DNA of 64,000 nucleotides from Candidatus Gastranaerophilales bacterium (GCA_944326615.1 CALVEO010000005.1:294-64293); one strand, 5' to 3'; numbered from the stretch's first letter, positions 1,129 to 45,771 are shown. The notes: generated from the letters alone by a model not told the origin. Numbers and translations: made by a program.

Positions 1129-1491
1129 TTAAAAATTCAAATACTTTTCAAGATAATTACATGCATAATCAAGCCGTTGTTTGTCATGCAAAAACCACAA
1201 GCCAATAAGACATTCAAAAGCTGTTGCAAGACGATATTCTGCCTGTATCTGACGCCTGCCGACAGGTATCGGGAGATTTCTTGCGCGGCGGACAATGTCT
1301 TTTTCTTCATCAGTCAAAATATTTTCAAGATAATGAAGAAGTTCTGCCTGAAAAGATGCTTTTACATTTGTGGTTGTAATTTTGTGCAGTTTTGTGGAAT
1401 TATTTGTCAGCCGGACGGTTTTTTCACGTATAAAAATTTCCCATACAGCATCACCAATATAGGCATAATTCCTTAAATTCATTTCTTCCAT
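1129..1491 (-). CDS. mrnC: Mini-ribonuclease III
   Basis: AYIGDAVWE signature, ~120 aa, no dsRBD, YRLATAFECLIG motif. Confidence 0.9.
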   Translation of the reverse strand: MEEMNLRNYAYIGDAVWEIFIREKTVRLTNNSTKLHKITTTNVKASFQAELLHYLENILTDEEKDIVRRARNLPIPVGRRQIQAEYRLATAFECLIGLWFLHDKQRLDYACNYLEKYLNF

Positions 1492-13597: not shown

Positions 13598-14866
13598 ATG
13601 AAAAATAAAATAAAAATCGGACTTATAGGACTCGGCACAGTCGGCTCAGGCGTATTTAAAACTCTAAAAAATTTTGATAATATAGAAATCGCAAAGATTG
13701 CGGTCAAAAATATTAACAAACCGCGTAATATTGAAGGGCTTGATAACTCTCTGCTAACTGATAACCCTTGTGAAATTGTTAAAAACCCTGATATTGATAT
13801 TGTTGTAGAACTTATAGGAGGGCTTGAGCCTGCGTTTGATTTGATTGCAGAAGCGCTGAAAAACGGCAAACATATTGTTACCGCAAACAAAGAACTTCTG
13901 GCCAAACGCGGTGAAGAAATTTTTGCGATAGCTGAAAAATATAATAAAGTAATTCTATATGAAGCCGCAATTGCAGGCGGTATTCCGATTATCATGCCGG
14001 TTAAAACAATTCTTGCAGGCAACAAGATTAACCATATTGAAGCTATCGTAAACGGAACAACAAATTATATTCTTACAAAAATGGATGTTGAAAGTGCGCA
14101 ATATGCAGATGTTTTGAAGGAAGCACAAAAACTCGGGTACGCAGAAGCTGATCCCACAGGTGATGTTGAAGGTTTTGATGCGGCATATAAAATCGCGACT
14201 CTTGCATCAATTACCTTTAACAAACGAATAAAAATTGAAAATGTTTATCGTGAAGGAATTACAAAAATCCGCGCAGAAGATATGAAATCAGCAAACGACT
14301 TAGGGTACAAAATTAAACTTATAGCTTCTGCACATCTCAACAATAATGGCGAAGCTGATGTAAGGGTTCATCCTATGCTTGTTTCAAAAAAATCAACCCT
14401 TGCACATATTGATTATGTAACAAATGCTGTTTCTTTAAGCGGACATCCTGTCGGAAGCATTACTCTTTCAGGCCCGGGCGCGGGAGAATTTCCGACGGCA
14501 AGCTCGGTTGTCGGTGATATTCTTGCAATAGCCGCGGAATTAAATACATCGGATTATATTCTGCCGATGATGAGATGCAGACATTCCGAAGATGCTGTAA
14601 TGGTTAATATAGAAGATACAATTAACAAATATTATATATCAATTAACGCGCATAATAACAAAGGTGTTATAGGAAAAATAGGAACAATTTGTGCAAATCA
14701 TGACATTAGTCTTGCAAGTATTGTTCAAAGATGCGTTTCTGACGACAATACAGCAGATATTACCGTAATCACCGAACTTGTAAAAGAAGAAAATATGCGA
14801 AATGCGATAAAATTGATTGAAGCTGACGGGAATAAGGTTAACAGCCTTATAAGAGTACAGGTCTAA
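13598..14866 (+). CDS. hom: Homoserine dehydrogenase with C-terminal ACT domain
   Basis: GLIGLGTVGSG, VTANKELLA, EAAIAGGIPII, NGTTNYIL, GYAEADP, GPGAGEFPTASSV. Confidence 0.97.
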   Translation: MKNKIKIGLIGLGTVGSGVFKTLKNFDNIEIAKIAVKNINKPRNIEGLDNSLLTDNPCEIVKNPDIDIVVELIGGLEPAFDLIAEALKNGKHIVTANKELLAKRGEEIFAIAEKYNKVILYEAAIAGGIPIIMPVKTILAGNKINHIEAIVNGTTNYILTKMDVESAQYADVLKEAQKLGYAEADPTGDVEGFDAAYKIATLASITFNKRIKIENVYREGITKIRAEDMKSANDLGYKIKLIASAHLNNNGEADVRVHPMLVSKKSTLAHIDYVTNAVSLSGHPVGSITLSGPGAGEFPTASSVVGDILAIAAELNTSDYILPMMRCRHSEDAVMVNIEDTINKYYISINAHNNKGVIGKIGTICANHDISLASIVQRCVSDDNTADITVITELVKEENMRNAIKLIEADGNKVNSLIRVQV

Positions 14867-14871
14867 TAAAA

Positions 14872-14948
14872 ACCCCTCACCCGAATTTCTAACTTTCGCC
14901 TCAGCTCAAGTTGAAATTCTGCCCTCTCACAGAGAGAGAGGGCGTGTT
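14872..14948 (+). repeat. Left inverted repeat of the DUF559 cassette (double-hairpin palindrome)
   Basis: CCCTCACCCGAATTTC-[23 nt]-GAAATTCTGCCCTCTCACAGAGAGAGAGGGC; inverted copy at 15327-15404. Confidence 0.9.
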
Positions 14949-15309
14949 ATTCAATATTGTTATATGTTTCAATTATTGAATTTAATACTTCTTCGATATT
15001 ATTAATAACATCATTATCAAAAAATCTAATAACTTTATAACCGTTTTGATTAAGAAATTCTGTTCTTGTTTTATCATATTCAACATATTTTTCATCAATA
15101 TGCTGTGAACCATCGAGTTCAATGACAAGTTTCTTACTTAAATTTAAGAAATCAACAATATATTTCCCTATTGGCACCTGGCGTCTGAATTTTATATTGT
15201 TTAATCTTTTTCCCCGCAAATACTGCCATAGAATATTCTCACAATCTGTTTGATTTATTCTAAGATCTTTTGCATAATTTAAAGATTTTTGGGTATAATG
15301 TCGTGTCAT
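14947..15309 (-). CDS. DUF559 / Vsr-like PD-(D/E)XK endonuclease
   Basis: AKDLRINQTDCENILWQYLR...KFRRQVPIGKYIVDF...LVIELDGSQH...GYKVIRF. Confidence 0.92.
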   Translation of the reverse strand: MTRHYTQKSLNYAKDLRINQTDCENILWQYLRGKRLNNIKFRRQVPIGKYIVDFLNLSKKLVIELDGSQHIDEKYVEYDKTRTEFLNQNGYKVIRFFDNDVINNIEEVLNSIIETYNNIE

Positions 15310-15326
15310 AATAATATAATATCACA

Positions 15327-15404
15327 AACATGCCCTCTCTCCCTGTGAGAGGGCAGAATTTCGCCTTTGTCTGAAGGAGAAAGGCTGAAATTCGGGTGAG
15401 GGTT
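15327..15404 (-). repeat. Right inverted repeat of the DUF559 cassette
   Basis: Reverse complement: CCCTCACCCGAATTTC-[24 nt]-GAAATTCTGCCCTCTCACAGGGAGAGAGGGC. It matches the left copy at 16/16 and 30/31 in the conserved blocks. Confidence 0.9.
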
Positions 15405-15464: not shown

Positions 15465-16517
15465 ATGTATTACAAGGGTTTGATAAACACATTCAGAGAA
15501 TATTTGCCGGTAACAGATAAAACTCCTGTTATCACACTTAATGAAGGCAACACACCGCTGATTAAGGCTGATAATCTTGCAAAAAAAATAGGTTTAGAGG
15601 CTGAAATTTATTTAAAATTTGAAGGCTGCAACCCGACAGGGAGTTTTAAAGACCGCGGTATGACAATGGCAGTATCCAAGGCAAAAGAAGATGGTTCTGA
15701 TGCCATAATCTGTGCTTCAACAGGTAATACATCAGCCTCTGCCGCTGCATACGGCGCGAAAGCAGGAATGAGAACGTTTGTATTAATCCCCGACGGCTAC
15801 ATAGCACTGGGAAAACTCTCTCAGGCAATGATGTACGGAGCAGAAATTATTGCAATACAAGGGAATTTTGACGAAGCTCTTGAAATGGTTCGAAAAATTT
15901 CCGATAACTACCCGATTACCCTTGTAAATTCAGTAAACCCTTATAGAATTGAAGGCCAGAAAACCGGTGCTTTTGAAATTTGTAATGCACTGGGGCAGGC
16001 ACCCGACTATCACTTTATCCCTGTCGGAAATGCCGGTAACATTACTGCTTACTGGAAGGGCTACAAACAATGGCATGAAGCAGGAAAAATTTCTTCTTTA
16101 CCTAAAATGATGGGATTTGAAGCGGAAGGAGCCGCCGCAATTGTTAAAGGAGAAAGGATTATGCATCCTGAAACTCTTGCAACGGCAATCCGTATAGGAA
16201 ATCCTGCAAGCTGGAAATTTGCAGAAGCCGCAAGAGATGAAAGCAAGGGTATGATAAATTTTGTAACCGATGAAGAAATAGTAAAAGCTTACAAAATGAT
16301 AGCATCAACCGAAGGCATACTTGCAGAACCCGCGAGCGCAGCATCTGTAGCAGGCTTAATCAAAGTTAAAGATAAAATTAAAGAAGGAACAAAAATTGTC
16401 TGCATATTAACAGGCAACGGTTTAAAAGATCCTGATAATGCAATTAAATATTCAAATTCAGATGTTAAAAAGACACCTGTCGATATGACAGAAATTCTAA
16501 AGGCAATGAAAATATAA
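15465..16517 (+). CDS. thrC: Threonine synthase
   Basis: [50 protein letters not shown]. Confidence 0.97.
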
Positions 16518-45302: not shown

Positions 45303-45502
45303 TGGAACGAAGCCGTTCCATCCATTACAGCTTACGACTATGCATAAGGCGCTTTAATGAATGTTCAAATATTGTAAATTTCTTTCGTAATATCGCTTTG
45401 TTCAGTCAACGCACTCGGGTATTCACGTAATTCGGGATAGATTTACTTAACTTCTTATCCCTCGCATCTGTTTTTCTTGAAATATTGACGTAATTGCCGA
45501 AG

Positions 45503-45642
45503 AAGCGTACCGCTCCCCCCATCCCTGATTAGGGAGGGCTGGGGAGAGGGTCATTAGAAGCTAAGAGGGTAGGAGGATAGGAAGATAAGCTTTTTTTTGT
45601 AAACAGCCTACCTTCTTAGCTTCCTATCTTCTTAACTTCTAA
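45503..45642 (-). repeat. Composite intergenic repeat, copy R5 (inverted)
   Basis: Reverse complement: TTTAGAAGTTAAGAAGATAGGAAGCTAAGAAGGTAGGCTGTTTAC...AAGCTTATCTTCCTATCCTCCTACCCTCTTAGCTTCT...ACCCTCTCCCCAGCCCTCCCTAATCAGGGA, shared with R1 and R3. Confidence 0.9.
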
Positions 45643-45645
45643 ATA

Positions 45646-45728
45646 AACCCTCACCCGCATCTCTAAAGACTCGCAAGCTCGTCTAGAGCTGCTCCCTCTC
45701 ACAAAGAGAGAGGGGGAGCGTGCCGCTC
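45646..45728 (+). repeat. Solo copy of the DUF559-flanking palindrome
   Basis: AACCCTCACCCG-[different hairpin]-CCCTCTCACAAAGAGAGAGGG followed by GAGCGTGCCGCTC. Confidence 0.85.
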
Positions 45729-45771
45729 AACTATAACTTATGGGAGCACATAAACCGATTTTTTATGATAG

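Follow-up and report, generated by a model that had tools for sequence, protein, structure and literature searches.

A DUF559 nuclease gene between inverted triplex-motif repeats: a hom-thrC cassette that suggests a partner enzyme for the BoxC/PIT/TM repeats

The DUF559 proteins form a very large family of unknown function, and the BoxC/PIT/triplex motif (TM) repeats, present in hundreds of bacterial genomes and tied to genome instability, have neither a known function nor a known partner. In vitro, the TM consensus, CCCTCNCCC-N3-6-GGGNGAGGG-N3-GGGNGAGGG, adopts an intrastrand triplex of the class II purine-motif type (Holder et al. 2015, PMC4666352, who cite Hoyne et al. 2000 among the sources for these repeats). 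The same authors looked for mobility genes by TM sites and found none, and no partner protein was reported (PMC4666352). An enzyme-repeat partnership is described for repeats of the repetitive extragenic palindromic (REP) type, their REP doublets forming hairpins (REPINs) and the REP-associated tyrosine transposases (RAYTs), where a low-copy, vertically inherited enzyme gene is flanked by an inverted short structured repeat (Bertels & Rainey 2011, PMC3116915) and the repeats are dispersed in tens to hundreds of copies, largely only where the gene is kept (Di Nocera et al. 2013, PMC3733652). Here we describe a locus that combines the two families. It lies in a 64-kb stretch of DNA, hereafter the window (G000:C5:294-64293; genomes, contigs and loci are referred to by G, C and L numbers), from a genome of 1.96 Mb and 34.6% G+C whose nearest named relatives are gut metagenome-assembled genomes (MAGs) of Candidatus Gastranaerophilales (Melainabacteria). 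Located between hom and thrC, it represents a small cassette, ancient and found in many lineages, in which a Vsr-like DUF559 gene sits between inverted repeats of a hairpin-plus-mirror-tail design. The repeat family, DUF559 and homing endonucleases of the Vsr-like type have all been published before, and the new part is the physical and phyletic pairing; in the literature searched we found no published link of DUF559 with these repeats and no description of in-frame cassettes.

The DUF559 gene is the sole open reading frame (ORF) of the hom-thrC cassette. It lies on the minus strand and is bracketed, as an initial annotation of this DNA had claimed, by inverted double-hairpin units; these measure about 75 nt, and its stop codon TAA (14947-49) does overlap the left repeat, by 2 nt. 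Read from its outer end, the left unit consists of the tail CCCTCACCC (14874-82), a middle hairpin GAATTTC-N23-GAAATTC (14883-14919), a single T, the inner hairpin GCCCTCTC-ACAGAGA-GAGAGGGC (14921-43) and GTGTT. The right unit is its reverse complement with a different 24-nt middle, and is made up of an inner hairpin (15332-54), a middle hairpin GAATTTC-N24-GAAATTC (15356-93) and the tail GGGTGAGGG (15394-15402). Both have a 7-8-bp stem CCCTCTC/GAGAGGG. The outer 16 nt are identical at 16/16 positions, as first reported, and the inner block agrees at 34/36 positions over 36 nt by direct reading, in place of the 30/31 given earlier for a shorter block. The core patterns of the units occur three times each, against 0.00 and 0.28 expected when the window is shuffled. 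Both units fold into a pair of hairpins; the z-scores against shuffles (Table 1) cover the hairpins alone, as triplexes are not modelled by ViennaRNA. The differing middles had been taken to point to selection on structure. They are no sign of compensatory change at hom-thrC, since the related locus L063 carries the same two middles with the sides swapped, and the middles are therefore exchangeable modules.

On the G-rich strand the tail GGGTGAGGG is, in both units, a mirror copy of the purine arm GAGAGGG of the inner hairpin, which is the arrangement that a class II purine-motif triplex demands of its third segment. The repeats of the window are a variant of the BoxC/PIT/TMECO G/C-rich intrastrand-triplex motif in which a hairpin replaces the 3-nt second loop. 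They share with that family the intergenic and dispersed distribution, the frequency in Cyanobacteria, the association with variable loci and the third segment that mirrors the purine arm. They differ from it in forming an inverted pair around a nuclease gene, in occurring also within coding regions, and in carrying a 37-38-nt hairpin where the 3-nt loop 2 sits, so that neither window unit matches the published consensus. That consensus is matched by the short solo units of the genome and by the ends of a second cassette in priA (CCCTCTCCC-CCTGC-GGGAGAGGG-ATG-GGGTGAGGG, G000:C9). As a measure of the design we used a mirror rule, by which the third segment mirrors the purine arm with G placed with G and A with T or A. 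The rule holds at 85% of positions, and 59 of the 103 distinct units with asymmetric arms follow it perfectly, at exactly a 3-nt loop; any other loop length or a direct-repeat register gives at most three perfect units among the same 103. In the double-hairpin units it holds at 94% of positions and is perfect in 27/34 distinct units, with the arm types GAGAGGG, GGGAGAG and GGGAGGA paired with co-varying tails.

Both units also resemble the Rfam motif whalefall-1 (RF01762), described as a non-coding RNA of one metagenome (Weinberg et al. 2010, PMC2864571). This motif runs from a hairpin CUCUCC..GGAGAG over CAGA and a second hairpin to UCAGGGUGAGG, and because the window units have the same order of parts they give matches, at 14873-14945 (-) and 15330-15403 (+), whose scores (Table 1) stay under the gathering threshold of 37 bits. 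A whalefall-1 search of 15 related loci yielded no hits at E 0.01 or better, and with sub-threshold scores that are not reproduced in related loci we rejected membership. The description of whalefall-1 draws no link to a nuclease gene; judged by its layout, this orphan 'RNA motif', which comes from a whale-fall metagenome, may itself be a DNA repeat of the triplex family.

The pairing of gene and repeat is specific. The only other DUF559 gene of the genome (G000:C9) likewise lies between inverted units, and inverted unit pairs 200-2500 nt apart enclose these two DUF559 genes and nothing else among ~1900 genes; other cargo genes between such pairs were looked for in G000 and none was found. Of 23 DUF559 loci studied in the genus (35-100% identical), about 21 are bracketed. 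To look beyond the genus we analyzed the flanks of 73 loci from many phyla, including Atribacterota, the Candidate Phyla Radiation (CPR), Proteobacteria, Chloroflexota, Spirochaetota and Omnitrophota, against control windows that were laid out in the same way and displaced by 1.4-2 kb. As the initial annotation had anticipated, the flanks carry inverted CCCTC(N)CCC-type hairpin repeats. For 66 loci (90%) the flank inverted-repeat score exceeds the 95th percentile of the controls, the best score between flanks has a median of 41 versus 19, and what the flanks share is in every case a sequence of this motif type. The conserved nuclease gene hence lies, specifically and almost universally, between inverted TM-type repeats.

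The second line of evidence is phyletic. Lone repeat units are far more numerous than gene copies, and they are frequent almost only where the DUF559 gene is kept: genomes of the genus with a full-length DUF559 gene hold 25-451 copies of CCCTCWCCC, those without it 0-25. Note that this co-occurrence amounts to only about two independent state changes on the thrC tree. We have accordingly downgraded it as strong evidence, and for the same reason turned to a phylum-wide test with the motif GGRGAGGG-N2-4-GGGKGRGG in 251 genomes, in which a reversed-pattern control gave counts near zero. Motif and gene co-occur with an odds ratio of 9.3 (p 5e-16), which is 5.4 outside the window's own family, and the motif count is higher with DUF559 in 12 of the 15 genera that hold both states. 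The comparison of solo copies in genomes with and without DUF559 that the initial annotation had proposed thus favors its reading at both levels, with exceptions either way. Taken together the data suggest, and do not prove, that the nuclease family is the partner enzyme of the BoxC/PIT/TM repeats.

The analogy with REP/RAYT systems drawn in the initial annotation is in part supported by these results: the gene is flanked by inverted, genome-dispersed repeats that are absent where the gene is absent (with the genus-level caveat just given), and empty sites exist. The repeats themselves, however, are not REP. They lack the GTAG/CGTC tag (PMC3733652), start with CCCTCACCC and end with GGGCGTGTT or GGGCATGTT, follow the hairpin-plus-mirror-tail design, and their cassettes also lodge in frame in genes. 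As the enzyme is of the PD-(D/E)XK type and not an HUH/Y1 (IS200/IS605-like) transposase, the cassette is analogous to the REP/RAYT systems and not a member of them.

A different explanation is that DUF559 is a passenger or insulated gene, an ordinary Vsr-like repair or defence nuclease next to repeats that are spread or arise by another process, such as replication slippage, recombination at non-B DNA or the work of some other enzyme, and that may act as inward-facing terminators or insulators. The inner hairpins (14920-14944 (+) and 15355-15331 (-)) do score as intrinsic-terminator-like, both facing into the cassette, motif hits vastly exceed genes (195 versus 2 in G000), and some motif-rich genomes lack DUF559. 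TM sites are moreover known rearrangement hot spots (PMC4666352), and in Caulobacter the DUF559 protein VsrA acts as a chromosomal nuclease of the Vsr-like kind with a functional link to a methyltransferase (PMC12907096). A full-length C5-cytosine methyltransferase, however, was not found in G000, where a weak partial methylase match was all that was seen, and a Vsr-type repair role tied to such an enzyme is weakened accordingly. A passenger gene would also leave it unexplained why only the two DUF559 genes among ~1900 are bracketed, why bracketing recurs in 90% of loci across phyla, and why the type of end and the DUF559 clade go together; nor does an insulator role account for cassettes that lie in frame in housekeeping genes. 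We consider this explanation unlikely.

The dispersed units are of several kinds. The tail CCCTCACCC occurs 50 times in the genome, where about two occurrences are estimated from base composition (our own arithmetic), and the 195 motif hits counted above are to CCCTC[AT]CCC. Most copies are short units, consisting of a hairpin CCCTCTCCC-loop-GGGAGAGGG and one tail three bases off. A solo unit of the kind announced for elsewhere in the window was found (Table 1); it shares the double-hairpin architecture with a different middle. That solo units are scars of collapsed cassettes was considered and holds for the long palindromes at hom-thrC and in an M14-peptidase gene described below; it does not apply to the short units, none of which has two tails and which are therefore not simply remnants of collapse. 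At 45500-45730 in the window and at 20 sites across the genome, the solo double-hairpin units are modules within larger intergenic arrays of mosaic structure, which also contain purine-rich hairpins and further CCCTCCCC..GGGGAGGG-TTA-GGGTGGGG units. The genome contains, in addition, a repeat of more than 110 nt that starts with ATATATAATAATCAGCCCTCACCCCAACCCTCTCCCACAGGAGAGGAAG and is present in about 10 near-identical copies on about 10 contigs (e.g. C1:62692, C4:27713, C10:30194, C15:6863). Units related to it lie directly 5' of prepilin-type genes (KKQVAFTLAEVLI), where stop-free frames reach far upstream of the likely starts.

Gene and ends are inherited and relocated together, and it is mainly in gene-bearing genomes that the repeats are abundant. 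The double-hairpin type of end maps to one DUF559 clade over at least seven genomic sites or contexts, from which it follows that gene and ends move as a unit. Related cassettes lie in frame in host genes of at least six kinds; free of stop codons and coding for Pro/Gly-rich linkers, the ends make this possible. The second cassette of G000 (G000:C9:6397-6832; L001 ~1460-1900) lies in frame in priA, just 5' of the Walker A motif (LLLHGVTASGKT), and its inverted TM ends encode the linker peptides NPSPHPSPAGGEG and HPLPLRERDGVRGE. Both flanks of this site could be placed in 33/34 loci of the genus, and all inserts are multiples of three; in the series there are sites that are empty, full cassettes (four), a remnant consisting of a hairpin only, a footprint, and unrelated palindromes rich in purines. 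The M14-peptidase gene shows the same in-frame series (38/42 loci placed), so that at the two sites together all 71 placed loci (of 76) have multiple-of-three inserts, with empty site, scar and full cassette represented. In G000 itself the M14 gene (G000:C7:49110-49775, L204) has a 54-nt in-frame segment compared with 18-27 nt at empty sites. This segment forms a palindrome, CCCCCTTCCTCGAAATCAAATATTTCGAGGAGGGGG, which equals the G030 cassette's outer parts and is located at the codon where relatives have full cassettes; it looks like a scar. The family has other hosts, in frame or fused: ispE, with two sites that are both filled in L225, a radical-SAM enzyme, and PrmA-like and methylase-like genes. 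In L225 (G100:C3:92000-97000) two DUF559 cassettes share a single 577-aa frame with ispE, one of them N-terminal and one internal.

Insertions of this kind recall the Rickettsia palindromic elements (RPEs), reportedly described by Ogata and colleagues in 2000 as in-frame palindromic inserts in protein genes that are tolerated as additional stretches of peptide. No enzyme is known for RPEs and they carry no gene, whereas some copies of the present family carry a conserved nuclease. Separately from the cassettes, the priA loop of L176-L187 and L189 contains 102-324-nt in-frame inserts of purine-rich palindromic modules (AGAAGATAGGAAGG...CCTTCCTGCC); these are present even in genomes without DUF559 and without CCCTCWCCC repeats, are RPE-like and seem to be independent of DUF559. 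Among 126 copies the only recent duplication is a tandem DUF559 pair in a gammaproteobacterial MAG (L138, CAWEEB010000047.1), 96% identical and ~530 nt apart.

The recurrence of the same host sites raises the question whether DUF559 might be a site-specific homing endonuclease that works without splicing, its targets being the P-loop region of priA, the active-site loop of the M14 gene and the hom-thrC spacer. The repeats would then be stop-free, recombination-prone ends that make the insert tolerable, and the palindromes at the same sites would be scars. The closest described systems are the Vsr-like homing endonucleases (I-Bth0305I, PDB 3R3P, from a group I intron; 'fractured gene' enzymes that split phage genes, Dassa et al. 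2009, PMC2677866), which share fold and motif with the present protein and are likewise selfish genes in conserved DNA-metabolism genes. They sit in introns or split inteins or break the host gene, however, and have extra DNA-binding domains, whereas the insert described here involves neither an intron nor an intein, is read through in frame or intergenic, and has ends that are conserved, inverted and structured. In line with homing, priA and the M14 gene are each occupied at one and the same codon position in several genera, the latter by two different cassette types, scars or footprints occur at the same sites (L163, L190, L204), and alleles with and without the insert exist at hom-thrC, priA and M14, a distribution that can be read as gain or as loss. 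But homing leaves the hundreds of dispersed solo units and their co-occurrence with the gene unexplained, the protein has no extra DNA-binding domain, and the same-site copies fit one old insertion followed by vertical descent. The priA loop, moreover, takes up unrelated purine-rich palindromes as well, so that mere tolerance may explain this hot spot. On this evidence we hold homing without splicing to be quite unlikely.

The history of the hom-thrC site could be followed in relatives of G000. The spacer measures 15 bp to >1 kb in 30 relatives, and sites without the DUF559 gene, which the initial annotation had proposed to look for, exist in the closest of them (L033, L035, L038). There a single palindrome, CCCTCACCCGAATTTC-loop-GAAATTCGGGTGAGGG, occupies the place of the cassette, and its loop is the left middle of the window, flipped in L035. 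In comparison with this empty-looking site the extra DNA of the window is bounded by direct copies of GAAATTC (14913-19 and 15387-93), which are arms of the middle hairpins, and a deletion between them would yield exactly the palindrome of the relatives. In a more distant species (L063), which is 80% identical in DNA and colinear along 2945 nt, site and orientation of the cassette are the same but the end units have swapped sides; the right unit of the window and the unit on the opposite side in L063 show 96% identity across 75 nt. In G014-like genomes (L057, L069) the cassette is reversed. A single clade for all hom-thrC copies was not rejected (approximately unbiased (AU) test, p 0.45). These loci are most simply read as an old insertion that recombination between its ends causes to flip and that was lost on several occasions, with palindromic scars left behind; alternatively the relatives' palindrome may be the pre-insertion state, with which the loci are also compatible. 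At hom-thrC the cassette is an old one, inherited vertically and showing no sign of a recent transposition.

One locus seemed to indicate recent horizontal transfer. In L062 (CALURE010000014.1) the cassette is 98% identical to that of the window and thrC only 90%. We rejected it as evidence because the contig ends in the repeat and the two sides of the cassette carry different thrC upstream regions; it is probably an assembly chimera formed via the shared 46-nt repeat, less likely a real rearrangement. In a clade without DUF559 (L042-L047, L054) the hom-thrC spacer contains a conserved ORF of ~150 aa with an N-terminal hydrophobic segment (MPENKQKLTF...).

From its sequence P0001 is predicted to be a hydrolytic Vsr-like PD-(D/E)XK nuclease of the EDxHD type. 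It matches PDB 3HRL with E 1e-23 and, more weakly, the catalytic domain of I-Bth0305I (3R3P, E 2e-3). The active-site residues of DUF559/EDxHD nucleases (D, E-x-D, H, D) are all present in P0001: in 135 family sequences, P0001 and the in-frame copies among them, D53, E64, D66 and H70 do not vary and D79 is conserved at 99%, and in the family alignment E24, W28, Q44, D53, F54, E64, D66, H70, D79, R82 and R95 reach 98-100%. The ratio of nonsynonymous to synonymous substitution rates (dN/dS) is 0.01-0.15 in 12/13 orthologous pairs, even where dS >1, with 0.06 for P0001 and its orthologue in L063 and 0.08-0.12 for the in-frame priA copies. The gene thus appears to be kept functional under strong purifying selection.

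Such selection over dS >1 is also what a host-serving enzyme would show, and DUF559 might be a structure nuclease that clears the repeat hairpins or triplexes during replication and is kept beside them in a mutualistic relationship. The low copy number and vertical inheritance, as in RAYTs, and the finding that purine-motif triplexes block polymerases in vitro (PMC4666352) are in line with this role. The in-frame lodging in many hosts and the spread of one clade to at least seven sites point instead to a selfish element, and many close relatives do without the gene and without the repeats. A purely host-serving function is in our view very unlikely.

We favor the explanation that the DUF559 nuclease acts on its own repeat and that host repair then copies units or the whole cassette, a proposal to which we would give an even chance. 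The enzyme would recognise the repeat, be it as duplex, extruded hairpin or triplex, and nick or cut it; recombination or repair by the host would then copy repeat units to other places and occasionally take the whole gene-bearing cassette along. Such a mode would be homing-endonuclease-like in its mechanism and REPIN-RAYT-like in its population structure. A bolder version is possible and to our mind rather doubtful. It would make DUF559 the missing partner of the BoxC/PIT/TM repeats, orphans since the 1990s, and the cassette a class of bacterial mobile element with a Vsr-like nuclease of 120 aa as its sole protein, which would work on the element's hairpin or triplex ends; the element would scatter repeat units over the genome, its gene-bearing form residing, read through without splicing, in surface loops of proteins with housekeeping functions (PriA, IspE and an M14 peptidase, for example).

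Several points weigh against the action of DUF559 on its own repeat. We know of no activity, binding site or cut site for any member of the family, and a hydrolytic nuclease of 120 aa cannot by itself carry out strand transfer. The co-occurrence within the genus reduces to the two or so state changes mentioned, six motif-rich genomes of the phylum have no DUF559 match, and 30 genomes with DUF559 lack the motif as written. Short-type solo units have one tail at most (40/69) and never two, which does not fit a simple collapse of cassettes. The cassette at hom-thrC is common to species that are only 80% identical in DNA. No classical target-site duplication was found there, as stated initially, and nothing of this kind was seen at hom-thrC beyond the hairpin arms. 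High DUF559 identities are those of same-site orthologues in different species, and no recent transposition is visible because no genome of the genus holds a pair of copies that are >=85% identical. The cassette thus shows neither the target-site duplications nor the near-identical copies in one genome that mark terminal inverted repeat (TIR) transposons and miniature inverted-repeat transposable elements (MITEs). Finally, Holder et al. did not observe a stable triplex in vivo when they examined E. coli (PMC4666352).

If the favored explanation is true, it establishes a second enzyme-repeat partnership that is independent of REPIN-RAYT and includes a nuclease aimed at a structured DNA target. 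Linking an orphan repeat with an orphan protein family would merge both puzzles. The in-frame copies would further represent domain insertion into essential proteins without inteins or introns, and would be relevant to annotation and to protein evolution.

Table 1. Features of the hom-thrC cassette and its surroundings (window positions)
Feature	Position	Strand	Basis and remarks
DUF559 gene (P0001, 120 aa)	14947-15309	-	Pfam PF04480, E 8e-39, 132.3 bits (cut-off 20.6)
hom (homoserine dehydrogenase), upstream neighbour	13598-14866	+	Pfam
thrC-like pyridoxal phosphate (PLP) enzyme (threonine-synthase-like, PALP), downstream neighbour	15465-16517	+	Pfam PALP; orthologues in 40/41 genus genomes
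Left terminal unit	14874-14948	+	Sequence; fold z-score -5.3; mirror rule; whalefall-1 23.1 bits (sub-threshold)
Right terminal unit, inverted	15327-15402	-	Sequence; fold z-score -5.5; whalefall-1 25.4 bits (threshold 37)
Solo unit, same architecture, different middle	45648-45715	+	One of 20 genome copies; within larger mosaic intergenic repeat
Extended -10-like TGATATTAT, 6 nt 5' of ATG, without Shine-Dalgarno	15316-15324	-	Sequence; putative promoter

Upstream of the DUF559 gene the arrangement TGATATTAT-N6-ATG without a Shine-Dalgarno sequence was found as initially described, whereas a consensus promoter scan called no promoter there; the element may serve as the promoter of a leaderless transcript. 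The same TATAAT-N6-ATG geometry is common to L005, L007 and L008 and is not seen in L063. Elsewhere in the window, a 120-aa ORF at 1129-1491 (-) consists of a lone RNase III catalytic domain of the Mini-III type (PF00636, E 3e-19).

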